A DNA stretch of 64,000 nt. Source: Trypanosoma brucei (taxonomy: Eukaryota). The notes beneath the pieces are model-generated. The model had not been told where the DNA came from. It searched no databases and saw nothing but the letters and a program-made list of their open reading frames with translations. The stretch's first letter is position 1; every line of letters starts with the position of its first letter. Location: contig CP000069.1 of NCBI GenBank assembly GCA_000002445.1, positions 960,001-1,024,000 of the forward strand. The letters are read 5' to 3'. The position numbers and the translations under genes were made by a program. Below are positions 26,126-48,388 of this stretch, piece after piece.

Positions 26126-26999
26126 AAACAAATGCTATTTGTTTAAGTTAGGTTTTTTCTATCTTCTCTTTTCATTGTTCACATAAACATTGCATGTTAG
26201 TGTTTTCGACAAAGCAGTGCATTCAACAATATTAGCATTTTTCAGTAATAATAAAACATAAATATATCTATGTGTTCCTCTCTATTTATATTTTTAATGT
26301 GCATGCGCTTACGGTACGAAAGAAAACATCTATTGTATTAAATTTTTACCACTTATTACAACTTAATAGTTGGATTCCTGCATGGTGCACTCCAACTCTC
26401 CCTTCCTATCTGCTTATCTACAACACTTTTATTTCTCACATACCATCACATGATTCTAATAGGGATATGGTTATACTAGCTGATTCCGTGATAGCTTCCC
26501 CCCTTGGTTTTTTTTCCAAAAATGACGGGAAATGATACGAGAGATGTTGGGACCTCCAACGAAAATTCGTTTCTGTTACTTTGACAAGTACATGATACAG
26601 TGTTAGACTTAAATGCGGGGATGGAGTTCATTAAAGGACAGATGAAAATACAGAGAGATGAAATTGCGTCTATGGATATGAGACTTAGCAAACAAATGAA
26701 AATACGGGAGGAAAAAGGTGTGGATATAAGTAGGACGTTGAATTGGCTGACGTTACTGGTTGAAAATGAGCGTCCTGGTGCATATGAATCTGCGTACAAT
26801 GTAATACAGCGCGTAATCTCATATGACGATAATAAGGGATTGCTGGGGTTGCATGCTGAGGAAAGGGTTGCTAACCTTCGGGCAGATGAAAAATGCCATA
26901 CCAGGTTCGACCGAAATGGGCCGATATTGCATGTTATCACCTCTAAGAAGGGTTGGTCATGCACAGATTTTGGTGGAAGAGATGCATGCGACATGTTTG

Positions 27000-27150
27000 T
27001 GCGCAAGGAGACGGTACGTATGTGGCACAGAATCCGAGCACATTTGGATGATTGGTTACCGACTGGCTCCCAAGTGTCCCAACAGCCCCTCTTACTTGTT
27101 TGTTCTCGGGAGATCGGAAAATCCTGTGGTCGGGAGAATACAGCGATGTG
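27000..27150 (-). mobile_element. Degenerate ingi-related (DIRE-like) fragment on the minus strand. It is 5'-truncated inside the AP-endonuclease region and may extend further toward about 26.5 kb.
   Basis: The reverse complement of 27100-27150 reads cacatcgctgtattctcccgaccaca..., matching the internal ingi site catcgctgtattctcccgataccgaccaccatcaca at 27762 in copy 1. Downstream similarity (gagaacaaacaag against gagacgacacagac) decays quickly. Confidence 0.4.
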
Positions 27151-27376
27151 CCCTGACGATGCCAGCCACCTCAACGTGGTGTCAGAGTCCAGTACCCCGT
27201 CTCATCGGGGGAAGCCAAGAGCCAGCAGCGTTCCTTTCATGGGCAACACTGCTGTGCTCCGGCTACGGCATCATACAGCACAGGGATCAGCAGCGTCTTG
27301 CTGGGACACCGTTTTTCATTTGTCGGTCCATGGGCACGTGCCAGCGTGTCATCAGCAGTATATCATCCACACTAAG

Positions 27377-30300
27377 ATGCTGCTGTCCGGTGATGTGGAA
27401 GAGAATCCCGGCCCGTCGTTGCGCGGGATGCAGTGGAACTGCGCCGGGCTATCTCAAGGAAAGAGATTAGCATTAGCACGTCGGCATACATCCCACCAAA
27501 ACGCACATTCACGGCAAATGACTTAGATACGCTTCTGACGACCGACGGTGCCCAGCTCATCGGTGCAGACGCTAACGCACACGCGTTGGTATGGGATCGC
27601 GCGAGCCCACCAAATACCAAGGGTGAAACCCTCACACAGTGGTGCATTGACAACCAGCTTCTGGTCTGTAACACTGGTGAGTGCACCAGGTACGCCCGCC
27701 ACCACGTGAAGCCCACCCCTGATATGACGCTATCAAGGAATTTCACAGTGTCCAGGTGGACATCGCTGTATTCTCCCGATACCGACCACCATCACATATT
27801 TTTCGACGTTATTGTTGGAGACGACACAGACTCACTGAGCTGCCCGCGGCTTTGAAAACCCATGTACGCATAGCTAAAAGCTGACTGGAGGAATTTCCGT
27901 CTCAAGGTTGACGAGTTCTGCAGAAAAATTGGTAGAGAATAACGTCAACACCCTGAAACAGAAATTGAGCTCCGCCATCCGCATTGCGACGAAGGTCTCC
28001 GTTCCCCGTGGCTGCAGAGCAACGCCACCACATGGGACACCTGCGCTCGCGAAACTCGATGAAGAGATCGCTGGATACGGACCCTCTCACCGAAGGGAAA
28101 AGTTGGTAGCCACGCGTAAGCAGATCCTGGACCGCACCACAAAGAAGAGATGGAGCACGCTATGCTCCAGACTTGCGGTGTCAGACCGCTGCAGTTGGCA
28201 CATTGTCAAGAAAGTATACGCGCCACGACCACTAACCACACCGGCTGTACTTGTTGATAACGCGGCCATCACGGACTACCGTCAAGCTGAGAGGTTCAGT
28301 AAACTGTACTCATCCCGCGCAAGAAGGCACCCCGACTCACACCCACCGGCACCCATAAAGACGATAGCGAGTGAGTTTAGTCTCATCACGATAGCTGAAC
28401 TACGGAGATCGATCAAACTGCTACCGAGTGGATCCGCAGCCGGACCTGATTGCTTATACAACGAGGCATTACAACATCTCGGTAGAGCAGCGCTGAATGT
28501 TGTGCTGAGGCTATTCAATGAGAGCCTACGAATGGGAGCCGTGCCGTCTGCATGGAAGACCGGTGTTATCATCCCCATCCTGAAGGCCAGAAAAAAGGAA
28601 GAGTACCCCGAATCTTACAGGCCTGTGACGCTCACGAGCTGTCTCTGCAAAGTCATGGAGCGCATAATTGCCGCAAGGTTTAGAGACACTGTTGAGTCCC
28701 AGCTGACGCCGCAGCAATCAGGCTTTCGCCCCGGATGCTCACCGCTCGAACAACTCCTGCACGTCTGCGCTGCCCTCTGCCGTCCCACGCACCAATATCG
28801 TACAGGTGCTGTATTCGTTGACTACGAGAAGGCATTTGACACAGTAGACCACGACAAAATTGCGGGGGAAATGCACAGAATGAAGGTATCACCCCACATT
28901 GTGAAGTGGTGCGTATCATTTCTGAGTAACCGAACTGGTAGAGTGAGATTCAAGGAGAAACTTTCCAGAAGCAGAACATTTGAGCGAGGAGTGCCACAAG
29001 GAACTCTCCTTGGCCCAATCATGTTCATAATTGTCATGAACTCGTTGAGCCAACGCCTTGCAGAAGTGCCGTTGCTGCAGCACGGATTCTTTGCAGACGA
29101 CCTGACGCTACTTGCGAGGCACACAGAGGGATGTCATCAACCAGACGCTACAATGCGGCCTAAACGTGGTGTTACAGTGGTCAAAAGAGTACTTCATGTC
29201 TATCAATGTAGCGAAAACAAAGTTCACACTCTTCGGGTTCACAGAGCGCCACCCCCTTACATTACAACTGGAAGGCGAAAGAATAGGAGCTGACAGGACA
29301 CCGAAGCTTCTAGGAGTAACATTCCAGTGTCTGCAAGGGATGGCAACACATGCGGCCGAAACGAGACGCAAGATGGACTTCCGACTACTGCAGATAACAG
29401 TCATCTCAGCTTCTATATGGGGGCCAATACGACAAGTGCTGAGAGCTTTTTATCTAGCACTCGTACAGGCACGCACCATGTGTGGCATTGAGGTATGGTA
29501 CTGGGACGCTTCGGAACGAAGTCGCGACCTCCTTGCAGCAGCACAACACAAAGCCAGTCGAATCATAGCTGGCATACCGCATGGGACGCGCGAAGAGGAC
29601 TCTCTGCTGGAAGCAAACCTCCTGCCACTCAAGACGACCACTCTTGTGCGCAGCATGAAATTCATGCTGATGTGTGAGTCACGAGGCGGATGTTTGCGGC
29701 GCAGTGCTGAGGAAGTATACCACAGCAAACACCCAGTCAGAGCCCTACACTCCCGCATCATGCGGTCCTACCCCCACCTCCGCATTGAGCCACGCGAGCA
29801 CCCACTAGAGACATCGACGCTCCGCCACAGCTGCCGACCGATATTTCACACGCAGATAAAGCCTGTGTGCGCTGATGACCCTGACAATGTCAAAAGGGAG
29901 GCTTCCGAAAAGTGATTGCACGGCATTTTTCACGGAGGGGGAAGGAGCCACCGCGGCGAGTGCACTACGAATTGTGGACTGATGGATCCGTGCCCCTCGG
30001 TGAGAAGTCCGGATCAACTGCCCTGCTCTATAGAAACAACACGCTGATTTGTGCACCCGAGACCGGAGCAGGGGAACTTTCATGCAGTTACAGAGCGGAA
30101 TGCGTAGCATTAGAGATAGGACTGTAACGGCTGCTGAAATGGCTTCTGGCATACAGAAGCACACCGAGCAGGTTGTCCATCTTCTCTGACTCGCTGTCAA
30201 TGTTAACAGCACTGCAGACGGGCCCCCTATCCGTAACGGACCCAATTCTGAGACGACTATGGAGGCTTCTGCTTCAAGTTGAGAGAAGGAAGGTGCGTAT

Positions 30301-31883
30301 CCGACTGCAATTTGCGTCCGGCCATTGTGGCGTGAAACGGAATGAGGTTTGCGATGAAATGGCCAAAAAGGCCGCTGATTTACCACAGTTGCGAGACGCA
30401 TGGATCCCCGACATCATTGCTTATGCGAAGCGAGTGCTTAGGTCGGAAGAAGTCTATGAGAACACTCATAGGTTTGGTATCACGGGCAACCACTTTCCAA
30501 CAAAACATAAAGAAGAACTGACGGGGGAAGAAGAAACGGCACTGGCACGCTTTCGGGTTGGAGTCTTCAAGATACTATGGATGGATGTTGCGAAAGATCA
30601 ACCCGAGTGTGCCTCCACAGTGCCGATGGTGCAACCCGCAACATGCAGCAATAGGGCCAACAATACAAACAGTCCCAACTGTTGCGACACGCACTCTTCA
30701 GAGAACCTCCGAACCAACTAAATGTACGGAATGTGATGCCACATACCAATACCTGTCGAATGCTGTAACGCACATGGTAAACAAACATGGCTTTGTGCGA
30801 GCTGATGCCCTCCGGAGGATCAAATACGGCGATGCAACACCCGCAGTGGACATCCTCCCGGAGCCCTCTCCAGTGGTGGCGATCGTTCCTCTACCATCGA
30901 GCATACGAGTCCTGATGAGACCGCAGGTGCTTTACTGTACCCTCTGTGCCTCCAAATTCGCAGTGCCAGGCCGACTATTACACCATCTTAGAACAATACA
31001 TGGCATAGGCAGCGGTAGTTGCCGCGTGAAAAGGGGGCGAGAGAGCGAGGACTCAGTGCAAGGAGATGGTAGCGTCCCAGCAGCCCCAGCCCCTCAGGAA
31101 ACACGGAAGCTGCCGTTTCAATGTGACCTGTGCGAGGCGAGCTTCAGTACACGTTCTTCCCTGTCACTACACAAGAAATTCAAGCATAAGAGCATAGTGA
31201 CGGAGGACGGTACCGTGGTGTTGGTGCAATTCCCTCGTAAGCGTGCCCGTGAGGGAAACGTTGACGTCCCGGGGAAAGGCGAGGTGCAGTGTGGTGTGTG
31301 TCAAAAAGTGCTCAGTTGCAGGGACTCCCTCATCCGACACTGTAAGGCTTTCCACAAAGGTGAGGGAGTCGAGCTTAAATGCAGCAAAAGCACAAAATTG
31401 CGTGCCACTGATTCCCCGCATACAAATGCATCCATGTTGGTGCGCCCGACATGCGGAAGGCAGTGTGCTAGCAAAACTGGCCTCACCCTACATCAAAAGA
31501 AGATGCACGGTATGAAGGTAGAGCGCGCTGTTACCAGCCAACGCGGCGACTGCGAAGAAACGTCGCTGCACCTGATGAGCTGTCCCAGTTTGAAGGAGTT
31601 ACGTGTCAGGCTTGCAGTAGAAGGTGAGTGTGTGCAGGATATATGTTTTTCCAAAAGGCTGGCGCAATTTCTCATTGCGGTTGAACGGAGCCGGCCGCAG
31701 GTGAAGTCCTCCCCCAATGTAACAGTCATACAACCCACTCTCCCTTCTGCAACTTCCCAGCTTATTGCCGAGTGTGGAGCTAGCAGGAAAAGCACCGGAC
31801 GCTGGAATAGTCCAGACACCCTCAGAGACAGAGGGGGTATGCAGTTAACAAGCAACAGAAACAGAAAGAGGGAGAGAGAATAA
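27377..31883 (+). pseudogene. ingi polyprotein ORF (APE-RT-RNase H-ZnF) disrupted by multiple frameshifts
   Basis: The ORF track shows successive fragments 26600-27526, 27433-27855, 27908-29293, 29112-29915, 30173-30721 and 30558-31883 in different frames. Together they reconstitute one retrotransposon polyprotein. Confidence 0.75.
27392..27415 (+). other. 2A-like co-translational ribosome-skipping motif (D-V-E-E-N-P-G-P) at the N-terminus of the ingi ORF
   Basis: The codons gat gtg gaa gag aat ccc ggc ccg encode ...MLLSGDVEENPGPSLRGMQWNCAGL... The motif lies about 12 codons upstream of the APE domain start (QWNCAGL) and conforms to the canonical D(V/I)ExNPGP. Confidence 0.8.
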
Positions 31884-33611
31884 TAAACAAATAACAAAAT
31901 TCAAAACAAAAGGATTGCTAATTGACATTTTTGTGAGAGTCCGGGGTGGGAGGCTTCTCGCCCCGTCTGCTGTATTCCGTTCAACTGCGGAGCTACAACA
32001 AAACGTTATAGAGAGGGTGTGTTAGGATGAATAATAAAGGGAGACTCTGCCACAGTCGCCAGACCGATAGCATCTCAGGGCTCTACGGTGATGGCTGATG
32101 GCCGTGCCAGTGGGGGGAAACTCTCACGAAGGCACGAAAAAAAAAATTTTTAAAGTCTATAGGCAAACCTCTACCCTGATATGGCTAATGTTATCCGCTA
32201 AGAGATTTTGTTCGTGTCAGTATAAGCAGATGTCTCATGCCACAAGAGAATTTACGTATGGTTTTTGCTGCAAACAAACCAAATGATATACTTAAGTTTA
32301 CGTGTTTTCTTTCTTATAATTGAAATAGATGACATTATTTTGTCCATCTTTTTTTCCTTTTCTACTGACCAATCGCCTTCCGTATTTCTCATCCTGATGT
32401 CGAATATTATTCCTGTTTCCTCATTTTTTATTTCAGTAAACAGCAATTTTGCACAGCTATCACTCGACAAAAAATATGTTAATAATCTGAATAGTAATGA
32501 TTATATTATTATAAGAGAACACATTCATGTACGCCACTACTTCTCCCAGTAACAACGATAATCATACATAACATTGTATGTGCGTGTTCACGCGTTTCTC
32601 GTACATTATCATTTCTTTTGTTGTAATGTCCCTGTTTGAGTCATCTCAATTGCGAGTTATTATAACTCTGGTTGTCCCTCCACTATCTTTGTTTGGGGGT
32701 GGTGGGGTGTGTTAATGCTCTTTGCATGTGGAGTGGGGATAGAGGAATAGGGCCCTGCTTATGTGAAGAGTGTGTGAAGTAAGGATGATGAGAGTTACTT
32801 ATAAGGTGTGTAATTATTTTGCGTGTGGAAAATGGTCTAAATGAGGGTGCTGAGAGGGAAGGTCTCTAATTATTCTGGGACTGTTTTGTGTGCTAGCAAC
32901 TAACATAATATTCCATCATGCCAACGTATAATGAAAGGTTTCATTAATAAGCTTAATTTTCTGAGATGGTGTTTTGAAACCCCAATTGTTACCTTTACTA
33001 GTGTGTTGTTTAGGAAAATGGAACGCAAGAAGCTGTGTATACATATAGAGAGGGAAAGAAAGAGTATTTCCAGTACGCGTATGAAAGGAAGAGGATATGC
33101 TGAATAGGGCTCAGTAGCAGAGTTGTGTTCATTGGACAAGGGTAACACGTGCGTGCAAATTAGGCACGTGATGTGCCAGCGAATTAAGCTATTAAAGTAG
33201 CAACTGGAGCCAATGGAGGACTTGGAAAAATAGCATAACGTGAAGGTGCAAGTACTCATGAGGAGAATGGATAAGCTTGTTATTGATGGAAGGTGCAGCG
33301 CAGCTCAGTTGGAGGTGCGGTTACTTGGCATGATGGTTAGTGAAGTTTTTTTTTTTTGAATCAAGAAGTTAGGGAAAATGGGGTAACCAACAGGAAAACA
33401 CCTGTGAGGGAACTCAATGTTGATATACGGCTTGAGGGGAGGGTTCCATACAACTCTGTGTGCTTTGGGATGTGCTTCCTCTTTTGTTGAATGCTGCTGT
33501 AGTTGGTTTGTGTCAGGCACTTATTAATTTCGATATTTTTATGTGTCTGTTTGTTGTGTCTGTCAATAACAACAACAATTGTTATGACAAGCTTTAGTTT
33601 TCTCCTCCTTT

Positions 33612-35019
33612 TTGGCTGATGAACGTATAGGCAAAATCACGATGAGGCACGAAGCAGTGTTTGCCATTGGGATGCTTGCGGCTGTTTTATCTCCTTCCTC
33701 TCAGGGTGATTTGAATTCTTTCAAATGGAGGACTGAGATGTTTGACTGGAGCCAGTTTGCGGATGATGTGGATGAAAAAGAAAGGCACCACAACTTTGGA
33801 GAGTTCGAGACACTGCAAGATTTACAGAATTACGCAGGCAGAGGCCCCACAGCCTTCCTTCAAGAATCGTGAAAAGGAAGGAGAGATTCTGAAGAATTTG
33901 GAGGAAATGGTCAGTGAGGCAGAAGCTGTTGGTGGCAATAAGGGCTCGAACAATTCATCTAACAGCACGACAGCATATCAGGAGATGAAGAAACTATTTG
34001 AGAAGGCGAAAAAGCTTAAGGAGCAGATAGAGGTGAATAGGACAAAAGCCTTGAATGCAAGTCGCTCTGCTGAAGAAAATATGTTGAAAGCTGTGTATGG
34101 CGATGCTGTGGATGTGGCAAGAAACGAGAATAAAACTCTGGAGGAAGCCATGAGAGGAAACAAATCACTGCTGTTCAATAGTGTCTACAATGCAGACACG
34201 AGCTGCGGTTCTTTTGGAGACAAGTTAGTCGGAAAGACTCTAATTAATGACTTTTTCTGCCTATGTGTGGGAGAGGCTGTTGATTTAATTAAGAAGTTCG
34301 AAAAGCCAAATAATCATGTATATAAATTAGATGTTCCCGATAGCGATGATAACAATATATATAATGGGTTAAATTGTCCTTGTAAGGATGAAATAAGGAG
34401 ACCTAAAAATGGTAGTTGGACTATGATGGCTGCACATTGTAAAGGTGACAGCAGCAAGTGCAACCCCGACAATATAAGATACAACCATACTGAGGCATGG
34501 GATGTGATTAGTAGAGCTTGCGTGTACAAGAATATTGCATCTAATGTGAAAACCCTAAAGAGTGCATTAGCTCAGTTTGATGCGTTAGTGAATTTGGAAC
34601 AGGGCGGACATCAGGTGAAAGGTATTCTTGGTTATGTGAAAACATTAAACAACGAAAATCGCACATGCACAGGTCACACTGCTGGGTTTACATGCGTCAG
34701 TTACAACTACACACTTAAAAATGGTGGAATTCCATGGTACAACCGCCTCACTAACGCCACCAAGGAACTACAAGAAATGGCGAAGTATGCCAAAGAGGCT
34801 GACAGCCATCTTCATGAGTTGGAAGAATTCCAACATGAGGCAGAGGAAATATTTCTTGAAGTGAAGCTAGGTGGTGATGCAGAGCTATGGAAGAGTAGCC
34901 GAGGTAGGGATGATGGTGAAAGTGGCAATGCTGAAGTAAATAATAATGGATTCAACTATATAGATATAACAACTGATATTTTTACATTAATGATTCTATA
35001 TCTTTTTTGTATATTTTAG
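33612..35019 (+). pseudogene. VSG-like / VSG-related surface glycoprotein pseudogene, split by a frameshift between the signal peptide and the body
   Basis: ORF 33612-33872 provides a signal peptide (MRHEAVFAIGMLAAVLSPSSQG). The frame-shifted ORF 33742-35019 encodes a K/E-rich helical N-terminal region and a Cys-patterned middle (CLCVGE, NCPCKDE, AAHCKGDSSKCNPD, RTCTGHTAGFTCVSY). It ends in a short hydrophobic tail (DIFTLMILYLFCIF) like a GPI-addition signal. The two ORFs overlap in different frames. Confidence 0.45.
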
Positions 35020-35249
35020 TTTATTGGTACGTTACCAACATTGTTGTGTAGTGTTTCGATTCTTTATTGTTTTTATTTGGATGCGTTCTTTCTTTTTTTT
35101 TCGAGCCTGACGGTATGTGAGTTTAAAATAATTGCATTTGAATTTTTTTTTCTTTCCTTTGAATGAATAATCAATGTGGTATCACTTTTTCTTTTGTTGG
35201 AATGTGTGTCTTGTCGTTTTTTTTGCTGTTATCAAGATAGCAGCATTTT

Positions 35250-37255
35250 TTTTTTTTGAAAGCTCGCTGTCGATGCTACGACATCTTATGGGAGCTGAAA
35301 CTTTATGTAACTTTTTTTTATTGTGTATCATGCTGCGTTGTCAGTGTACTATTAGCTTGTTACTATCTGTGTCGGATAAAGCTATATTTGTCTTGTTAAT
35401 GACTTTTATAGGTTGGGTCGGAACTAGTTGTAAAAGACAAGTAGGCGTTACTGAAATTTTAATTTTCAACCATTCGCTATGGCTGTAAAAGCGTACTTGC
35501 GAGTGAAAGGCTTCTGCCTCTTTTTTTTTTTTTTGAGCCAAACGTAGAAGAGCATAGTGGAGTTTACAATTTTCATTCAGAGGAGTGGGCAGCTTTTTGT
35601 GTAGTCTATTCTCCTTTATAGGGGTGTTCCTCTCGAATGAAGAAAGTACATGTTGGAAGAGAATGAGGGGTTTCTCAATTTCTAGGAGGAATTGTGCAAG
35701 GTTCTTGGTGAACACTATCTTCTGCATATTTTTGCCCTCAAGCCCGAAGTAACTGCGGAGCACTTTAGGCTTGAGCGCGCGAGTATGTGGGTGGGATTCT
35801 CTTCGCATTCGTTGGAGTGTGTATGTTTCCTTTCAACGCAGATTTCATGTTTTTGATGGCGATGTATAGATGAGCCTGATGTTGATTGGGACGTCTTATT
35901 TCGGTTTACGAACGTGAAGTGTAGATGAAACCCTCTGACGTTGAAGCTCCGGAGCGGTGGTGGAGATTCTTTTGCTACGGAGAAGGGATGCTGTCTATGC
36001 ATTCCCCCGAAGTGCTCCATCAGGCTGTCTTTTGATACATGCGTATGACGGCATTGCGTGCAACAGGTGTCATTTAGACCTATAGTTACCGTGTTCCAAA
36101 TGAGGGATACCTCTTGTTCTGTGATGGAACGGCTCCGTTTTGTACCAGCGTTACTATCCAGGGGATGGCCTCTGCGGTGTTGAATCTTGGTGCTTGGTGT
36201 TGTTCCCCCTTTTGATTGTGATACAAAGCTGCATTGCCTGCATTGTAGCGGCTCAGATGTGCCTACTGGGTCGTGCACTGGATGCCCTCTCGTTTCCGTC
36301 GCTCGGGAGCCCTTTGTTGGAATACTTGCATTCTCTTCGAGTTCCCATTGCCTTTTTATTCCTCGCGACCCCGTTTGCGGTTGTACTTCGCAGTATTTCA
36401 TCCCGTGACTTATCACTAGTCCAATTTACGTGTGAAATATATAGCTGCGAGGTCCATATATCGCTTCATTTTCTCCAGAGGTTGAACTGGTGGTGTTATC
36501 ACTTTGTTCATTGGTGTTGGGTTGATGCGGTCGGTTTTCACTTTGTGTGCCTATCCGTTTCTCCACCACTGGAATGATGTGCTAAAGCTGACCTCTGCTC
36601 TTTATTCCATGACGCATTGTCGAGTCTCTCTGCTCAATCAATTTGAACCCACAGATTCCTCACTGGAGTGTGTTTTTTATCATATTCAGTGTGGATTATG
36701 GTTCCGCCAGTGTGGGGTGGAAAGGGACTGCCGTTGGTCATGTAGTGTTTCTGTGGCCTGCGCAATGTTAGTACACCTGCGCTCTTGGATTGAAAAAGCC
36801 ACGTTCTGCGCAAACCCATTTGTGCTGTTTGATATTTTCATCTTCTTTCCGCTTCTCCGACATTTCATCGTCTAACTTTCTCGTTTTGCCGTGAAGGCAT
36901 CGAGTTTTGTGCCATGTGAGCCCTCCTTTGTTTCCATAGGATTTGTTACAGACACTGAGCACATACGACTTCGGTGGAGGGGGCAGGGGTTATAAGGTGA
37001 ACATTCCACATCACCGAACAGCAGCATCTTAGTGTGGATGATATACTGCTGATGGCACGCTGGCACGTGCCCAGCGAACGACAAATGAAAAACGGTGTCC
37101 CAGCAAGACGCTGCTGATCCCTGTGTTGTATGATGCCGAGGCCGGAGCACAGCAGAGTTCCCCATGAAAGGAACGCTGCTGGCTCTTGGTTTCCCCCGAT
37201 GATGCGGGGTACTGGACTCTGGCACCACGTGGAGGTGGCCGGCATCGCCAGAGGG
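35250..37255 (-). mobile_element. Old degenerate ingi-related element (DIRE) on the minus strand with a large internal deletion. Its 5' Pr77/2A end lies at 37255 and its 3' T-rich end near 35250.
   Basis: The minus-strand ORF 36872-37258 encodes HLHVVPESSTPHHRGKPRASSVPFMGNSAVLRPRHHTTQGSAASCWDTVFHLS...MLLFGDVE, about 88 percent identical to copy 1 residues upstream of its 2A motif. The reverse complement of 37241-37255 is the Pr77 start (ccctctggcgatgcc). The region 36885-37000 is a weak reverse-complement match to the APE start. Minus ORFs 35715-36416 and 35341-35808 keep ingi C-terminal features (PLQCRQCSF..., CTQCRHTHVSKDSLMEHFGGMH, NLAQFLLEIEKP against KRLAQFLIAVERSRP). Poly(T) runs sit at about 35090-35260. 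Confidence 0.5.
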
Positions 37256-37402
37256 CATCGCTGTATTCTCCCGATACCGATCACCATCACATATTTTTCG
37301 ACGTTATCGTTGGAGACGACACAGACTCACTGAGCTGCCCGCGGCTTTGAAAACCCATGCACGCATAGCTAAAAGCTGACTGGAGGAATTTCCGTCTCAA
37401 GG

Positions 37403-39775
37403 TTGACGAGTTCTGCAGAAAAATTGGTAGAGAAGAATGTCAACACCCTGGAACAGAAATTGAGCTCCGCCATCCGCATTGCGACGAAGGTCTCCGTTCC
37501 CCGTGGCTGCAGAGCAACGCCACCACATTGGACACCTGCGCTCGCGAAACTCGATGAAGAGATCGCTGGATACGGACCCTCTCACCGAAGGGAAAAGTTG
37601 GTAGCCACGCGTAAGCAGATCCTGGACCGCACCACAAAGAAGAGATGGAGCACGCTATGCTCCAGACTTGCGGTGTCAGACCGCTGCAGTTGGCACATTG
37701 TCAAGAAAGTATACGCGCCACGACCACTAACCACACCGGCTGTACTTGTTGATAACGCGGCCATCACGGACTACCGTCAAGCTGAGAGGTTCAGTAAACT
37801 GTACTCATCCCGCGCAAGAAGGCACCCCGACTCACACCCACCGGCACACATAAAGACGATAGCGAGTGAGTTTAGTCTCATCACGATAGCTGAACTACGG
37901 AGATCGATCAAACTGCTACCGAGTGGATCCATAGCCGGACCTGATTGCTTATACAACGAGGCACTGCAACATCTCGGTAGAGCAGCGCTGAATGTTGTGC
38001 TGAGGCTATTCAATGAGAGCCTACGAATGGGAGCCGTGCCGTCTGCATGGAAGACCGGTGTTATCATCCCCATCCTGAAGGCCAGAAAAAAGGAAGAGTA
38101 CCCCGAATCTTACAGGCCTGTGACGCTCACGAGCTGTCTCTGCAAAGTCATGGAGCGCATAATTGCCGCAAGGTTTAGAGACACTGTTGAGTCCCAGCTG
38201 ACGCCGCAGCAATCAGGCTTTCGCCCCGGATGCTCACCGCTCGAACAACTCCTGCACGTCTGCGCTGCCCTCTGCCGTCCCACGCACCAATATCGTACAG
38301 GTGCTGTATTCGTTGACTACGAGAAGGCATTTGACACAGTAGACCACGACAAAATTGCGGGGGAAATGCACAGAATGAAGGTATCACCCCACATTGTGAA
38401 GTGGTGCGTATCATTTCTGAGTAACCGAACTGGTAGAGTGAGATTCAAGGAGAAGCTTTCCAGAAGCAGAACATTTGAGCGAGGAGTGCCACAAGGAACT
38501 GTCCTTGGCCCAATCATGTTCATTATTGTCATGAACTCGTTGAGCCAACGCCTTGCAGAAGTGCCGTTGCTGCAGCACGGATTCTTTGCAGACGACCTGA
38601 CGCTACTTGCGAGACACACAGAGAGGGATGTCATCAACCAGACGCTACAATGCGGCCTAAACGTGGTGTTACAGTGGTCAAAAGAGTACTTCATGTCTAT
38701 CAATGTAGCGAAAACAAAGTTCACACTCTTCGGGTGTATAGGGCGCCACCCCCTTACATTGCAACTGGACGGCGAAAGGATAGGAGCTGACAGGACACCG
38801 AAGCTTTTAGGAGTAACATTCCAGTGTCTGCAAGGGATGGCAACACATGCGACCGAAACGAGACGCAAGATGGACTTCCGACTACTGCAGATAACAGTCA
38901 TCTCAGCTTCTATATGGGGGCCAATACGACAAGTGCTGAGAGCTTTTTATCTAGCACTCGTACAGGCACGCACCATGTGTGGCATTGAGGTATGGTACTG
39001 GGACGCTTCGGAACGAAGTCGCGACCTCCTTGCAGCAGCACAACACAAAGCCAGTCGAATCATAGCTGGCATACCGCATGGGACGCGCAAAGAGGACTCT
39101 CTGCTGGAAGCAAACCTCCTGCCACTCAAGACGACCACTCTTGTGCGCAGCATGAAATTCATGCTGATGTGTGAGTCACGAGGCGGATGTTTGCGGCGCA
39201 GTGCTGAGGAAGTATACCACAGCAAACATCCAGTCAGAGCCCTACATTCCCGCATCATGCGGTCCTACCCCCACCTCCGCATTGAGCCACGCGAGCACCC
39301 ACTAGAGACATCGACGCTCCGCCACAGCTGCCGACCGATATTTCACACGCAGATAAAGCCTGTGTGCGCTGATGACCCTGACGATGTCAAAAGGGAGGCT
39401 CCCGAAAAGTGGATTGAACGGCATTTTGCACGGAGGGGGAAGGAGCCACCGCGACGAGAGCACTACGAATTGTGGACTGATGGATCCGTGCCCCTCGGTG
39501 AGAAGTCCGGATCAACTGCCCTGCTCTATAGAAACAACACGCTGATTTGTGCACCCAAGACCGGAGCAGGGGAACTCTCATGCAGTTACAGAGCGGAATG
39601 CGTAACATTAGAGATAGGACTGCAACGGCTGCTGAAATGGCTTCCGGCATACAGAAGCACATCGAGCAGGTTGTCCATCTTCTCTGACTCGCTGTCAATG
39701 TTAACAGCACTGCAGACAGGCCCCCTAGCCGTAACGGACCCAATTCTGAGACGACTATGGAGGCTTCTGCTTTAA
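37403..39775 (+). pseudogene. ingi copy 2 RT-RNase H ORF (790 aa), terminated by a premature stop shared with copy 3
   Basis: RT motifs (FFADD) and RNase H (ELWTDGSVPLGEKSGSTALLY). The ORF ends ...RRLWRLLL at a TAA where copy 1 has CAA (Q). Confidence 0.8.
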
Positions 39776-40055
39776 GTTCAGAGAAGGAAGGTGCGTATCC
39801 GACTGCAATTTGCGTCCGGCCATTGTGGCGTGAAACGGAATGAGGTTTTCGATGAAATGGCCAAAAAGGCCGCTGATTTACCACAGTTGCGAGACGCATG
39901 GATCCCCGACATCATTGCTTATGCGAAGCGAGTGCTTAGGTCGGAAGAAGTCCATGAGAACACTCATAGGTTTGGTATCACCTGCAACCACTTTCCAACA
40001 AAACATAAAGAAGAACTGACGAGGGAAGAGGAAACGGCACTGGCACGCTTTCGGG

Positions 40056-41519
40056 TTGGAGTCTTCAAGATACTATGGATGGATGTTGCGAAAGATCAAC
40101 CCGAGTGTGCCTCCACAGTGCCGATGGTGCAACCCGCAACATGCAGCAATAGGGCCAACAATACAAACAGTCCCAACTGTTGCGACACGCACTCTTCAGA
40201 GAACCTCCGAACCAACCAAATGTACGGAATGTGATGCCACATACCAATACCTGTCGAATGCTGTAACGCACATGGTAAACAAACATGGCTTTGTGCGAGC
40301 TGATGCCCTCCGGAGGATCAAATACGGCGATGCAACACCCGCAGTGGACATCCTCCCGGAGACCCCTCCAGTGGTGGCGATCGTTTCTTTACCATCGAGC
40401 ATACGAGTCCTGATGAGACCGCAGGTGCTTTACTGTACCCTCTGTGCCTCCAAATTCGCAGTGCCAGGCCGACTATTACACCATCTTAGAACAATACATG
40501 GCATAGGCAGCGGTAGTTGCCGCGTGAAAAGGGGGCGAGAGAGCGAGGACTCAGTGCAAGGAGATGGTAGCGTCCCAGCAGCCCCAGCCCCTCAGGAAAC
40601 ACGGAAGCTGCCGTTTCAATGTGACCTGTGCGAGGCGAGCTTCAGTACACGTTCTTCCCTGTCACTACACAAGAAATTCAAGCATAAGAGCATAGTGACG
40701 GAGGACGGTACCGTGGTGGTGTTGCAATTCCCTCGTAAGCGTGCTCGTGAGGGAAACGTTGACGTGCCGGGGAAAGGCGAGGTGCAGTGTGGTGTGTGTC
40801 CAAAAGTGCTCAGTTGCAGTGACTCCCTCATCCGACACTGTAAGGCTTTCCACAAAGGTGAGGGAGTCGAGCTTAAATGCAGCAAAAGCACAAAATTGCG
40901 TGCCACTGATTCCCCGCATACAAATGCATCCATGTTGGTGCGCCCGACATGCGGAAGGCAGTGTGCTAGCAAAACTGGCCTCACCCTACATCAAAAGAAG
41001 ATGCACGGTATGAAGGTAGAGCGCGCTGTTACCAGCCAACGCGGCGACTGCGAAGAAACGTCGCTGCACCTGATGAGCTGTCCCGGTTTGAAGGAGTTAC
41101 GTGTCAGGTTTGCGGTAGAAGGTGAGTGTGTGCAGGATATATGTTTTTCCAAAAGGCTGGCGCAATTTCTCATTGCGGTTGAACGGAGCCGGCCGCAGGT
41201 GAAGTCCTCACCTAATGTAACAGTCATACAACCCACTCTCCCTTCTGCAACTTCCCAGCTTATTGCTGAGAGTGGAGCTAGCAGGAAAAGCACCGGACGC
41301 AGGAATAGTCCAGACACCCTCAGAGAGGGGGTATGCAGTCAACAAGCAACAGAAACAGAAAGAGGGGGAGAGAATAATAAACAAAGAACAAAATTCAAAA
41401 CAAAAGGATTGCTAATTGACATTTTTGTGAGAGTCCGGGGTGGGAGGCTTCTCGCCCCATCTGCTGTATTCCGTTTAACTGCGGAACTACAACAAAACGT
41501 TATAGAGAGGGTGTGTTAG
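40056..41519 (+). pseudogene. ingi copy 2 C-terminal C2H2 zinc-finger ORF (487 aa)
   Basis: Multiple C2H2 fingers (CTECDATYQYLSNAVTHMVNKHGF, CTLCASKFAVPGRLLHHLRTIHG, CDLCEASFSTRSSLSLHKKFKHK, CGVCPKVLSCSDSLIRHCKAFH). It is frameshifted relative to the upstream ORF. Confidence 0.75.
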
Positions 41520-41568
41520 GATGAATAATAAAGGGAGACTCTGCCACAGTCGCCAGACCGATAGCATC

Positions 41569-42750
41569 TCAGGGCTCTACGGTGATGGCTGATGGCCGTG
41601 CCAGTGGGGGGAAACTCTCACGAAGGCACGAAGAAAATTCCAAAAAAAAAAAAATAGAGAAGCATATATCCTGCACACACTCACCTTCTACCGCAAACCT
41701 GACACGTAACTCCTTCAAACCGGGACAGCTCATCAAGTGCAGCGACGTTTCTTCGCAGTCGCCGCGTTGGCTGGTAACAGCGCGCTCTACCTTCATACCT
41801 TGCATCTTCTTTTGATGTAGGGTGAGGCCAGTTTTGCTAGCACACTGCCTTCCGCATGTCGGGCACACCAACATGGATGTGTTTGTATGCGGGGAATCAG
41901 TGGCACACAATTTTGTGTTTTTGCTGCATTTAAGCTCGACTCCCTCACCTTTGTGGAAAGCCTTACAGTGTCGGATGAGGGAGTCCCTGCAACTGAGCAC
42001 TTTTTGGCACACACCACACTGCACCTCGCCCTTCCCCGGGACGTCAACGTTTCCCTCACGGGCACGCTTACGAGGGAATTGCACCAACACCACGGTACCG
42101 TCCTCCGTCACTATGCTCTTATGCTTGAATTTCTTGTGTAGTGACAGGGAAGAACGTGTACTGAAGCTCGCCTCGCACAGGTCACATTGAAACGGCAGCT
42201 TCCGTGTTTCCTGAGGGGCTGGGGCTGCTGGGACGCTACCATCTCCTTGCACTGAGTCTTCGTTCTCTCTCCAACTTTTCACGCGGCAACTACCGCTACC
42301 TATGCCATGTATCGTTTGAAGGTGGTGTAATAGTCGGCCTGGCACTGCGAATTTGGAGGCACAGAGGGTACAGTAAAGCACCTGCGGTCTCATCAGGACT
42401 CGTATGCTCGATGGTAAAGAAACGATCGCCACCACTGGAGGGGGCTCCGGGAGGATGTCCACTGCGGGTGTTGCATCGCCGTATTTTATCTTTCGAAGGG
42501 CATCAGCTCGCACAAAGCCATGTTTGTTTACCATGTGCGTTACAGCATTCGACAGGTATTGGTATGTGGCATCACATTCCGTACATTTGGTTGGTTCGGA
42601 GGTTCTCTGAAGAGTGCGTGTCGCAACAGTTGGGACTGTTTGTATTGTTGGCCCTATTGCTGCATGTTGCGGGTTGCACCATCGGCACTGTGGAGGCACA
42701 CTCGGGTTGATCTTTCGCAACATCCATCCATAGTATCTTGAAGACTCCAA
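41569..42750 (-). pseudogene. ingi copy 3 C2H2 zinc-finger ORF, C-terminally truncated at the breakpoint
   Basis: It matches the copy 1 and copy 2 ZnF ORFs up to ...VQDICFS, then continues into unrelated sequence (the copy 2 poly(A) region read in reverse). Confidence 0.7.
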
Positions 42751-45662
42751 CCCGAAAGCGTGCCAGTGCCGTTTCCTCTTCCCTCGTCAGTTCTTCTTTA
42801 TGTTTTGTTGGAAAGTGGTTGCACGTGATACCAAACCTATGAGTGTTCTCATGGACTTCTTCCGACCTAAGCACTCGCTTCGCATAAGCAATGATGTCGG
42901 GGATCCATGCGTCTCGCAACTGTGGTAAATCAGCGGCCTTTTTGGCCATTTCATCGAAAACCTCATTCCGTTTCACGCCACAATGGCCGGACGCAAATTG
43001 CAGTCGGATACGCACCTTCCTTCTCTGAACTTAAAGCAGAAGCCTCCATAGTCGTCTCAGAATTGGGTCCGTTACGGCTAGGGGGCCTGTCTGCAGTGCT
43101 GTTAACATTGACAGCGAGTCAGAGAAGATGGACAACCTGCTCGATGTGCTTCTGTATGCCGGAAGCCATTTCAGCAGCCGTTGCAGTCCTATCTCTAATG
43201 TTACGCATTCCGCTCTGTAACTGCATGAGAGTTCCCCTGCTCCGGTCTTGGGTGCACAAATCAGCGTGTTGTTTCTATAGAGCAGGGCAGTTGATCCGGA
43301 CTTCTCACCGAGGGGCACGGATCCATCAGTCCACAATTCGTAGTGCTCTCGTCGCGGTGGCTCCTTCCCCCTCCGTGCAAAATGCCGTTCAATCCACTTT
43401 TCGGGAGCCTCCCTTTTGACATCGTCAGGGTCATCAGCGCACACAGGCTTTATCTGCGTGTGAAATATCGGTCGGCAGCTGTGGCGGAGCGTCGATGTCT
43501 CTAGTGGGTGCTCGCGTGGCTCAATGCGGAGGTGGGGGTAGGACCGCATGATGCGGGAATGTAGGGCTCTGACTGGATGTTTGCTGTGGTATACTTCCTC
43601 AGCACTGCGCCGCAAACATCCGCCTCGTGACTCACACATCAGCATGAATTTCATGCTGCGCACAAGAGTGGTCGTCTTGAGTGGCAGGAGGTTTGCTTCC
43701 AGCAGAGAGTCCTCTTTGCGCGTCCCATGCGGTATGCCAGCTATGATTCGACTGGCTTTGTGTTGTGCTGCTGCAAGGAGGTCGCGACTTCGTTCCGAAG
43801 CGTCCCAGTACCATACCTCAATGCCACACATGGTGCGTGCCTGTACGAGTGCTAGATAAAAAGCTCTCAGCACTTGTCGTATTGGCCCCCATATAGAAGC
43901 TGAGATGACTGTTATCTGCAGTAGTCGGAAGTCCATCTTGCGTCTCGTTTCGGTCGCATGTGTTGCCATCCCTTGCAGACACTGGAATGTTACTCCTAGA
44001 AGCTTCGGTGTCCTGTCAGCTCCTATCCTTTCGCCGTCCAGTTGCAATGTAAGGGGGTGGCGCCCTATACACCCGAAGAGTGTGAACTTTGTTTTCGCTA
44101 CATTGATAGACATGAAGTACTCTTTTGACCACTGTAACACCACGTTTAGGCCGCATTGTAGCGTCTGGTTGATGACATCCCTCTCTGTGTGTCTCGCAAG
44201 TAGCGTCAGGTCGTCTGCAAAGAATCCGTGCTGCAGCAACGGCACTTCTGCAAGGCGTTGGCTCAACGAGTTCATGACAATAATGAACATGATTGGGCCA
44301 AGGACAGTTCCTTGTGGCACTCCTCGCTCAAATGTTCTGCTTCTGGAAAGCTTCTCCTTGAATCTCACTCTACCAGTTCGGTTACTCAGAAATGATACGC
44401 ACCACTTCACAATGTGGGGTGATACCTTCATTCTGTGCATTTCCCCCGCAATTTTGTCGTGGTCTACTGTGTCAAATGCCTTCTCGTAGTCAACGAATAC
44501 AGCACCTGTACGATATTGGTGCGTGGGACGGCAGAGGGCAGCGCAGACGTGCAGGAGTTGTTCGAGCGGTGAGCATCCGGGGCGAAAGCCTGATTGCTGC
44601 GGCGTCAGCTGGGACTCAACAGTGTCTCTAAACCTTGCGGCAATTATGCGCTCCATGACTTTGCAGAGACAGCTCGTGAGCGTCACAGGCCTGTAAGAAT
44701 CGAGGTACTCTTCCTTTTTTCTGGCCTTCAGGATGGGGATGATAACACCGGTCTTCCATGCAGACGGCACGGCTCCCATTCGTAGGCTCTCATTGAATAG
44801 CCTCAGCACAACATTCAGCGCTGCTCTACCGAGATGTTGCAGTGCCTCGTTGTATAAGCAATCAGGTCCGGCTATGGATCCACTCGGTAGCAGTTTGATC
44901 GATCTCCGTAGTTCAGCTATCGTGATGAGACTAAACTCACTCGCTATCGTCTTTATGTGTGCCGGTGGGTGTGAGTCGGGGTGCCTTCTTGCGCGGGATG
45001 AGTACAGTTTACTGAACCTCTCAGCTTGACGGTAGTCCGTGATGGCCGCGTTATCAACAAGTACAGCCGGTGTGGTTAGTGGTCGTGGCGCGTATACTTT
45101 CTTGACAATGTGCCAACTGCAGCGGTCTGACACCGCAAGTCTGGAGCATAGCGTGCTCCATCTCTTCTTTGTGGTGCGGTCCAGGATCTGCTTACGCGTG
45201 GCTACCAACTTTTCCCTTCGGTGAGAGGGTCCGTATCCAGCGATCTCTTCATCGAGTTTCGCGAGCGCAGGTGTCCAATGTGGTGGCGTTGCTCTGCAGC
45301 CACGGGGAACGGAGACCTTCGTCGCAATGCGGATGGCGGAGCTCAATTTCTGTTTCAGGGTGTTGACATTCTTCTCTCTACCAATTTTCCTGCAGAGCTC
45401 GTCAACCTTGAGACGGAAATTCCTCCAGTCAGCTTTTAGCTATGCGTGCATGGGTTTTCAAAGCCGCGGGCAGCTCAGTGAGTCTGTGTCGTCTCCAACA
45501 ATAACGTCGAAAAATATGTGATGGTGGTCGGTATCGGGAGAATACAGCGATGTCCACCTGGACACTGTGAAATTCCTTGATAGCGTCATATCAGGGGTGG
45601 GCTCCACGTGGTGGCGCGCGTACCTGGTGCACTCACCAGTGTTACATACCAGAAGCTGGTTG
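41663..45662 (-). mobile_element. ingi copy 3 (minus strand), truncated at both ends. The 5' end lies in the APE domain at about 45662 and the 3' end at an internal site in the ZnF region at about 41663, so there is no 3' tail or poly(A).
   Basis: It is the reverse complement of copy 2 at about 98 percent identity and shares the same premature stop (...RRLWRLLL). The RT ORF is 43031-45346, followed by 42572-43015 and 41569-42750 on the minus strand. Homology to copy 2 stops at gatatatg (reverse complement of 41663-41670), whereas copy 2 continues there with tttttccaaaaggctggcg.... Confidence 0.85.
43031..45346 (-). pseudogene. ingi copy 3 RT-RNase H ORF (771 aa)
   Basis: Nearly identical to the copy 2 ORF. 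An extra GA near the 5' end (tagagagaagaatg against tagagaagaatg) shifts the first 19 codons out of frame. Confidence 0.8.
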
Positions 45663-47452
45663 GAACTTAAATTTAACGTTCATTGAACGGTTAAGGACTC
45701 TTGTGTGTGCGGCAACGGGCGCCAGCTTATTTACCCACTCTTGCTCTTGGGTACGTTAGCAGGACCTAATTTTCCCCGCCAGTGCTCCACAAACAAATTA
45801 TGTTGGGTCAGTGGGCGGTCACCCATACCACTGCGTATTATTGAAGCGTGCTCTGTGGGGTTGAAACGATTCGGTTCGCTGGTGGATGGATTTTCGGGTA
45901 AGTCCCGATGCACATGTGAGGCTCGCGGCCAGTGGCGTGGCTTCTGTTAAGCGTAGCGATTACGTCTTGATTCCGTTTTTCTTAGTTTGGACGGTGTGGT
46001 GGCACATGCGGAGGCGGTGTTGGTTAACAGTCGCTGATAGCACCAACTGCGCATGTCCTGTTGTATGTTTCGCTTCCAGTCCCTCAAATGGCAGGGGCTT
46101 GGTAATTGACAAGGTGGTCCGCGGAAAAGCATGTGAAGATCTGAAAGTGTGTCTTGAATCCCTGTAGATATGGAGGTGGTGGCATCAATGCGACGACTTC
46201 CCCACTTCATCTTAATATATATGTATTAGCTTGAAGGAACGCATGGGAACACGCAAAGGCACGGTGATTGCAGGCCAGCTGTGCTGAAAGATGGGATGGA
46301 AATGAGAGTACCACAAACGTGAGGGTGTACTGCTCTTCTTTCCGCACGAAGCGTTTGTGTAGTAAATGTGAGGTATGGCAGGCGGCGCGTGCAGAAACGC
46401 AGTGTACGGAAAGCGACTCCCATCATTACGGGGAAATTTCCAAGGAGAACGACAACGGAATACACGTCAGCGGTGCGTCGCGCTTCCCGACGCATTCCAA
46501 ACATCGTCTCAGGGAGTTTGAGATGTCAAGCTTCTCATATGGGAATGTGGAGAAAGAAAAGAAGCCCACGTCGTCTTATGACTGGAAATACTGGAAGCCC
46601 TTTGCTAATCCTCTCAAACGATGCCCGGCGCAAAAGATGAGACACATAATATAGGTGACGGTGACTGTGGTGTAACTCTTGCCGACGGACTCGAAGCTGG
46701 CGAAGCTCCTTCGGGAAGAAATCAATATCATTGCGAAAACCTTCGAAACCGGTGGCGGCGGGTGCTCATTCACCCCCCTTCCCCCCTGGGTTCTTGTCCT
46801 CGTCGACCTTCATTTCGCACCGCATGCGTTGAGGGCCGTTCTGTTGCCGCCATCTGGTTGATGTTGATGAAGTTCTTCTTCTTTAGCCCTTTTATTTCCG
46901 ACGAAGGTGTCGCACACACGTGGGAAAACGCAGAGTGCGTTTGTGCGTATGGGGACTGAGACGCTCAAATCACTAAATATGCAACACGCTGACGTACTGG
47001 GGGTGAAAATAAAACGATGGAAAGAAGAAAGTTACCAACTTTTCAGAAATAAGCAAGCAAGTCACAAAAAGTTTATGCTTACACATTCGTGGTAGCCTGT
47101 GGTTCAGCGGTATCAACATTGTGGTAAACAATGGTTCAGTTGTTGTTCAAATATACACATTTGCTCACACAAAAATGAGCTCATTTTTTTTTTTTTTGAA
47201 ACATTTGATAATGGTATCATTTGGAAATTGGCGATGTAGATGTTTCGATATTAAATTACAGGGTATAATGACATCCAGTGATCGCCAACTCCGGTATTCT
47301 GATTTGACAGAGGGGCATTTCCTTTCCCCCAACCTTTTAGCATCGCTTTCCATGCCCGAATTTGTAAAAAAAAAAAAAAGAAATAACCGATTTTCACTCT
47401 ATTTGTCACATCTCCAGAGTAAAAGGTTTCCTTTCAACTGTGTCTGTGTGTG

Positions 47453-48388
47453 TTACCCGTGGGGAGGGGTGTCCCGACGCGCAGTTGTCGGCGCCGGGCA
47501 GGCTGCCCTTTTCGGTGGAGTGTCGGCTTGCGCAATGCGCACAGGCAGGCAAAAACAAGGACCACAATTCGCATGGCTAAACTTTCCCCAGTCTGCCAAA
47601 TCAGTGGCTGAGTGAAGAAACTGTGCTTCCTCAATTTTGGGGCATACATCGCTTACTTCGGCTTCTGGTTTGTATAACTGTGAAAATTTCCGCGTTCGTT
47701 TTTCTAATAGACCAAGATCACGTGCCACCTTTGCCTCCTGGCGTATTGCAGCAAGATGTGCGGCATTTGCTTCCTCCACTCGCCTTATGATGCGGTGCTT
47801 CTCGTTAATCAACCTTTTAAGTTCCCTTTCTGCGTCTGCATGTGCGGCCTGGGATGAGAGTCCCTCATTTTCCTCCTGCACAACCGAGTCATATGCGTCG
47901 CATTCCTTAATCTCGTTTTTCAAAGTCTCCAGCTTGAGTCGCAGCTGCCCAACTTCCATACTAAGACTATGTATGGAGTGCTTCACTTCGAGGTATTCCC
48001 GTCTTTGCAACGCTTCTGTGGGTGATTTCTTACCAACTGTCCCCTTGCCCGTATTGAAGCACGCACCCATACCATTTATTTTGATGATCGCCTCTTTCCT
48101 CTGTGAACGCGCGGCCTCAAGTCGCAATTCCAGTTTAACCACTTCACCGTAGTCAAGCACATCAGTTGCCATGGAGGCAATCTGATCCCCCAACAGCGCC
48201 TTCTCTTCAAGCAGTTTGCCCAGCAATTCTTCAAGATACCGAAGTTCCTCCTCATCTTCGCTAAGCTCCACATTCCGACGTACTTGTTTTGCATGAGCGA
48301 ATCTTCTGGATGAGGGCCGTGCCGATTCAGCTGCTTTCCCAACTTTAACCAAAGGGGCTGTTCCCGGTCTCTTGTTCTTTAGTGTCAT
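47453..48388 (-). CDS. Hypothetical coiled-coil protein (311 aa)
   Basis: First long ORF of the minus-strand array. It is rich in heptad-like E/K/L segments (LRLEAARSQRKEAIIKI, LKLETLKNEIKE). The start is uncertain. Confidence 0.5.
   Translation of the reverse strand: MTLKNKRPGTAPLVKVGKAAESARPSSRRFAHAKQVRRNVELSEDEEELRYLEELLGKLLEEKALLGDQIASMATDVLDYGEVVKLELRLEAARSQRKEAIIKINGMGACFNTGKGTVGKKSPTEALQRREYLEVKHSIHSLSMEVGQLRLKLETLKNEIKECDAYDSVVQEENEGLSSQAAHADAERELKRLINEKHRIIRRVEEANAAHLAAIRQEAKVARDLGLLEKRTRKFSQLYKPEAEVSDVCPKIEEAQFLHSATDLADWGKFSHANCGPCFCLPVRIAQADTPPKRAACPAPTTARRDTPPHG

Follow-up and report, generated by a model that had tools for sequence, protein, structure and literature searches.

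What does the octapeptide DVEENPGP, encoded on chromosome 6 of Trypanosoma brucei near the 5' end of a non-LTR retrotransposon (ingi copy 1), represent, and is anything left at this locus for it to release? A first-pass annotation of 64 kb of this chromosome (hereafter the window, meaning the whole stretch of DNA that was analysed) had proposed a canonical 2A ribosome-skipping peptide at the N-terminus of this element. The Ingi-clade elements (Ingi, Tcoingi, Tvingi and L1Tc) all lack ORF1 and all carry 2A-like sequences (Odon et al., 2013, PMC3708506), and in L1Tc and Ingi the 2A is located directly upstream of the AP-endonuclease (APE) (PMC3708506). According to the account given in PMC3708506, the 2A sequences of both ingi and L1Tc have been tested and were active (Heras, 2006). 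The L1Tc 2A, for which activity has been shown in vitro and in vivo (PMC5814959, PMC1874656), presents the same picture, its action being co-translational and lowering the yield of the downstream endonuclease (PMC3894237, PMC5814959, PMC1874656). The annotation was thus correct in stating that 2A-like N-termini had been reported for the L1Tc/ingi clade (PMC3708506, PMC3894237, PMC5814959); the 2A of ingi and L1Tc is the classic cellular case of a virus-like ribosome-skipping signal, and that of ingi is already known and already assayed. The features of the locus are collected in Table 1.

Table 1. Features around the 2A motif and the neighbouring repeats, in window coordinates. L001 (T. b. gambiense), L003 and L004 (both T. 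b. equiperdum) are comparison loci.
Feature	Position	Strand	Basis
Upstream flank, open in the 2A frame	26600-27150	+	Frame scan, Pfam
RHS_N (retrotransposon hot spot protein) remnant	about 26906-27082	+	Pfam
Ingi copy 1, non-LTR retrotransposon, degenerate, 5' end kept	27151-32146	+	Homology, Pfam remnants
Pr77 / 79-bp signature of ingi-clade 5' ends	27151-27227	+	Sequence; PMC1874656
21-residue 2A tract QQYIIHTKMLLSGDVEENPGP	27353-27415	+	Comparison with T. brucei ingi copies
2-nt TA insertion	27359-27362	+	CAGTATATCATCC in copy 1 vs CAGTATCATCC in L004 ingi and L003 RIME
DVEENPGP, conserved C-terminal 2A core	27392-27415	+	Translation of the window
2A skip site	between Gly codon 27410-27412 and Pro codon 27413-27415	+	
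Remnant past the skip site: 36 codons, of which SLRGMQWNCAGLSQGKRLAL comes first and the others are out of register	27416-27526	+	Translation
Deletion junction, about 250 nt of the AP-endonuclease coding region gone	27472-27477	+	Comparison with L001, L004
1.76-kb dispersed T. brucei repeat copy	35494-37254	-	End-to-end alignment
2A-homologous stretch LLFGDVECSPYNPCP, without NPGP	36980-37024	-	Sequence comparison
Ingi copy 2, 5'-truncated, without 2A region	37253-41637	+	Equivalent to copy 1 27758-32143
Ingi copy 3, truncated 5' and 3', without 2A region	45662-41657	-	Equivalent to copy 1 27651-31651

The 2A core and its place in the ingi reading frame

Translation of the frame yields ...HQQYIIHTKMLLSGDVEENPGP before the skip site and SLRGMQWNCAGLSQGKRLAL after it (in a longer reading, ...HGHVPACHQQYIIHTKMLLSGDVEENPGP, the skip, and then SLRGMQWNCAGLSQGKRLAL), in agreement with the annotated canonical core at 27392-27415, of which the full NPGP is kept. 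Together with the preceding glycine, GDVEENPGP (27389-27415) conforms to GD(V/I)ExNPGP, the C-terminal motif by which PMC3708506 defines such peptides; a 2A further calls for some 10-12 residues of suitable sequence upstream. Within copy 1 the motif is at nt 242-265 and is in frame both with the first 20 APE residues and with 264 open codons upstream. In the homologue P0009, position 1 of the Pfam Exo_endo_phos profile corresponds to M18 of MLLSGDVEENPGPSLRGMQW, which puts the start of the APE domain five residues past the skip-site Pro and in the same frame, as expected from the annotated placement of the motif directly upstream of the ingi endonuclease.

The motif comprises only 8 residues and copy 1 has no intact downstream ORF, so one might ask whether it matches the 2A consensus by chance and is unrelated to translation of the element; we attach next to no probability to this. 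The six-frame amino-acid frequencies of the window itself predict 0.7 NPGP and 6.8e-5 D[VI]ExNPGP, the NPGP of copy 1 being the sole one in the six frames of the 64 kb, and the full 2A motif occurred in none of 300 first-order Markov-shuffled windows. For ingi and L1Tc, moreover, the motif has been both described and assayed (PMC3708506), and it lies at the same position in homologues of four Trypanosoma taxa. The junction ...KMLLSGDVEENPGPSLRGMQWN... is shared by ingi proteins from T. b. gambiense, T. b. equiperdum, T. b. brucei and T. theileri, and these taxa are the source of the 10 database homologues, out of 13, that have GDVEENPGPSLRGM at the same position. Of the remaining three, a T. 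theileri copy reads GGGVEENPGP, another sequence ends before the motif, and the last diverges after GD and is devoid of the core. All homologues of the leader peptide come from Trypanosoma. The alignment to ingi that had been proposed as a check therefore finds the motif in the APE frame and at the homologous position, and not as a chance match outside it. The T. theileri proteins labelled 'Tbingi' (P0010-P0013) bear the core at the same position in the variants SGGDVEENPGP, QSGDVEENPGP and GGGVEENPGP; as far as the literature on the ingi 2A was examined, T. theileri is absent from the motif-carrying species named there.

Over the longer tract, the last 15 residues (TKMLLS followed by GDVEENPGP) are identical in other T. 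brucei ingi copies, position 4 is His in copy 1 vs the usual Arg (IIRTKM), and QQY stands in place of the ISS of other copies because of a change of frame; the common T. brucei variant reads ...AISSIIRTKMLLSGDVEENPGP. The activity of 2A is known to be modulated by upstream context (PMC3708506), and a full-text literature search found no assay of the His/QQY variant. With the Tbingi 2A (T. brucei ingi / TRS-1; Heras et al., 2006; Odon et al., 2013, PMC3708506) the motif of copy 1 shares the family, the position and the GDVEENPGP core, whereas it differs in having His for Arg at position 4, a changed upstream frame and start codon, and a ruined downstream ORF. L1Tc2A of Trypanosoma cruzi belongs to the same clade, occupies the same place with respect to Pr77 and APE and follows the same DxExNPGP logic, but its core is DIEQNPGP (PMC3708506) and its nucleotide identity to ingi outside Pr77 is low. 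The F2A of FMDV and the T2A of Thosea asigna have the GD(V/I)ExNPGP C-terminus and presumed ribosome skipping in common with the ingi 2A; the viral sequences, however, part polyprotein domains of RNA viruses, whereas in ingi it is the polyprotein of a retrotransposon from which a short leader is parted, and the upstream tract of the ingi 2A is unrelated to the viral ones. A T. brucei sequence ending ...IIRTKMLVSGDVEENPGP was reportedly tested by Donnelly et al. in 2001.

It is thus very probable that the motif in copy 1 is the 2A (StopGo, ribosome-skipping) peptide of every Tbingi, placed between an N-terminal leader and the APE/RT/RNase H/zinc-finger polyprotein, in an element that is dead at this locus. 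Going by the literature, in an intact element the nascent ...TKMLLSGDVEENPG (...LLSGDVEENPG) in the exit tunnel would keep the Gly-Pro bond from forming, with release of the peptide made so far, after which the ribosome would either stop or go on from Pro, which would then be residue 1 of the APE-RT-RNase H-zinc-finger polyprotein. Ingi lacks ORF1, and its 2A would in this way part a leader of 60-85 residues from the enzymes, the yield of which it would probably lower. Ingi/RIME cDNA clones have been found without the spliced leader (PMC1874656).

Frame classes at the 5' end and the state of copy 1

The TA insertion upstream of the core is common to copy 1, the T. b. gambiense ingi L001 and the fragment at 37004-37254, and missing in the L004 ingi and the L003 RIME. 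Because of this insertion the 2A of copy 1 is read from the frame of the ATG at 27239 (MGNTAV) and not from that of the ATG at 27159 (MPATSTW, element nt 9), which is out of frame here and is the start used in most T. brucei homologues. According to this indel, the 5' ends of T. brucei ingi/RIME fall into two frame classes, MPATSTW vs MGNTAV, and both upstream frames are open through the leader, which suggests that the leader sequence itself may be of little importance.

The identity of copy 1 as ingi is evident from the Pr77 signature at its 5' end, from its domains, which run in the order APE, RT, RNase H, C2H2, and from the poly(A) run that closes it at the 3' end (32136-32146); the Pfam remnants follow one another as Exo_endo_phos_2, RVT_1, RNase_H and zf-C2H2, but in different frames. 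Homology to T. b. gambiense L001 and T. b. equiperdum L004 extends from 27151 to the poly(A) at 94-97% identity, with 94% over 4.7 kb to the full-length 5.2-kb ingi of T. b. equiperdum (L004 6777-12021). The window has two occurrences of the Pr77-type 5' signature, CCAGCCACCTCAACGTGGTG, one of them at 27162. An HDV-like ribozyme has been reported for Pr77; it was matched by no Rfam model in a scan of 26500-46500, in which no family reached its gathering score.

Within the endonuclease, the deletion of about 250 nt causes a frameshift; the segments absent from copy 1 are L004 7097-7347 and L001 7235-7485, and the lost protein segment is HKTLVDERIAFCLLSETR...ALTVT of P0001. The 2A frame is closed by a TAG at 27524-27526, 36 codons past the skip-site Pro. 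Over the whole of copy 1 it holds 40 stops; the longest open stretch is 471 codons, and the one long intact ORF that would go with autonomy was not found. Copy 1 is dead and unable to make its own proteins. Owing to the endonuclease deletion, the early stop and the frameshifts downstream, its 2A is a fossil and not part of a working ORF: recently inherited and preserved, with no intact protein left to release.

The upstream flank and a probably rearranged 5' junction

The open stretch of the 2A frame spans 26585-27526, contains several in-frame ATGs and overlaps the RHS_N match in the flank, and this raises the question of whether the 2A of copy 1 could be in use, host-started translation being split into an RHS-N/leader fusion and a 37-residue peptide. 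In a more general form, the 2A would free ingi proteins from host N-terminal extensions on host transcripts. Transcripts driven by Pr77 are not spliced and are translated poorly (PMC1874656, PMC3383444), so that read-through from host mRNA is conceivable. Such use is nonetheless very unlikely, since the RHS part is only a fragment, what lies downstream gives a meaningless 37-mer, open frames as long as this one are unremarkable in GC-rich repeat DNA, and 20 nt of inverted ingi at the junction point to a rearrangement and not to a clean in-frame insertion. These 20 nt, next to copy 1 at 27130-27149, match ingi nt 27760-27779 exactly in reverse complement. A 12-bp target-site duplication was not found for copy 1 (5' flank TACAGCGATGTG, 3' flank TTTTTAAAGTCT), which is consistent with later rearrangement. 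Because of the inverted 20 nt and the missing target-site duplication, we read the 5' junction of copy 1 as probably rearranged.

With the 2A regarded as a fossil, copy 1 shows only that a 2A can survive in a dead element, and it is of little import beyond correct annotation. The additions made here are small, namely the frame variant created by the TA insertion, a RIME junction that cuts through the 2A codons and a separate 1.76-kb family with a decayed 2A (see below), and they may be of use for cataloguing 2A integrity across ingi copies and for curating T. brucei repeats.

The same head-to-head junction is seen at three places (27130-27149, 37253-37274 and L002 12743-12797), in each of which the reverse complement of ingi APE nt 27760-27779 abuts an ingi-type 5' end. 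The inverted 20 nt may stem from a shared target-site preference or from rearrangement/conversion.

The RIME junction and a second site without NPGP

TbRIME is the 0.5-kb non-autonomous partner of ingi. In the T. b. equiperdum RIME, L003 3438-3685 corresponds to ingi nt 1-250 and is followed directly by the last ~246 nt of ingi, and the A/B junction falls right between GDVE and ENPGP (window 27400/27401; L003 3685/3684). Because the junction comes after GDVE, RIME retains only the upstream two-thirds of the 2A and has no NPGP core: like ingi, it includes the codons for ...KMLLSGDVE within nt 1-250, but unlike ingi it lacks ENPGP and would be unable to skip.

On the minus strand of the window GDVE is found again at 37004-37015, in the context KMLLFGDVECSPYNPCP. 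Identity between 37004-37274 (-) and 27130-27400 amounts to 93%, and the homology ends right after GAT GTG GAA (GDVE), that is, at the same nucleotide as RIME A, but with no RIME B after it. The annotation had described this inverted site as an old ingi with a mutated and inactive 2A. The inactivity can be upheld, since in view of the missing NPGP no skipping is expected here; the old ingi with point mutations cannot, as the fragment proves to be the 5' end of a 1.76-kb repeat. From 37251 to 35494 this repeat can be aligned without interruption of its ends to elements of T. b. equiperdum (L005 2653-4406, 94.7%) and T. b. gambiense (L006 2653-4407, 93.5%), the copies being 93-95% identical. It is made up of an ingi-type 5' end, an internal A-run and a C2H2-like 3' part (24% identity to the ingi C-terminus, E 1e-5), and it is without APE, RT and RNase H. 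A target-site duplication was not recognisable around the element.

That 37004-37254 (-) descends from an old ingi or RIME and lost its 2A to point mutations is accordingly unlikely. This reading could appeal to the 93% identity of the site to the first 250 nt of copy 1, and to the alignment of TATAACCCCTGCCCC with GAGAATCCCGGCCCG, which with a 9-nt gap gives 10/15 matches and sets YNPCP against ENPGP. Downstream of the fragment, however, neither the ingi APE nor the ingi 3' end / RIME B finds a match, the whole 1761 nt can be aligned end to end with repeats at other loci, and the copies at those loci (L005 and L006) read AAELGV(V/L)PEISPYNPCP in the 2A-equivalent stretch, with first 250 nt that are only 87-89% like ingi. 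Identity as a RIME was considered separately and rejected: the A half is present, and the next sequence is unlike the ingi 3' end and unlike the true RIME L003. The window copy at 37004-37254 is best read as a member of the 1.76-kb family in which the 5' 250 nt appear to have been replaced by ingi/RIME sequence, and the alignments are best explained by a replacement that would have reached the RIME-A boundary, rather than by descent with mutation.

The 1.76-kb repeat contains an intact ORF of 228 aa at 35718-36401 (-), 100% identical to Tb927.6.3400, the 90% protein cluster of which has at least 21 members on several chromosomes; dN/dS for this ORF is 0.35-0.74, a range drawn from three copies only, with 18-21 substitutions per pair. 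The element is absent from the inventories of Tbingi, TbRIME, TbDIRE (~5 kb) and TbSIDER1/2 (~570 bp) (PMC3820030, PMC2323293), and equally the family may already be annotated as DIRE-type repeats. Considered jointly, this family (with its decayed 2A, zinc-finger-like 3' part and 228-aa ORF) and the RIME junction within the 2A codons might mean that the 2A site is the boundary of a reusable 5' module in the clade, an idea that we put forward as speculative and rather doubtful.

Copies 2 and 3 and the surrounding locus

As the annotation had stated, ingi copies 2 and 3 are without the 2A through 5' truncation, their starts being equivalent to 27758 and 27651 of copy 1, past the motif. Housekeeping genes lie on the plus strand up to about 24 kb (among them a PIG-M mannosyltransferase and a calpain-like protease) and on the minus strand from about 47 kb (a kinase, an RsfS-like protein and WD40 proteins), and because these flanking genes are on the plus strand on the left and on the minus strand on the right, the repeat cluster fills a convergent strand-switch region. 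The 311-aa protein encoded at 47453-48388 (-) is identical to one in the T. brucei-group assembly GCA_001457755.2.

Among the ingi copies of this chromosome-internal locus there is also an ORF with a VSG_B domain at 33742-35019 (+), which has no ATG start and is probably a pseudogene. Copies 2 and 3 are arranged tail to tail, 37429-41149 against 41657-45377, and form within the convergent strand-switch region a 3.7-kb inverted repeat, the arms of which are 99% complementary and separated by a spacer of 507 nt; it is plausible that this inverted repeat is a source of hairpin dsRNA and siRNA.
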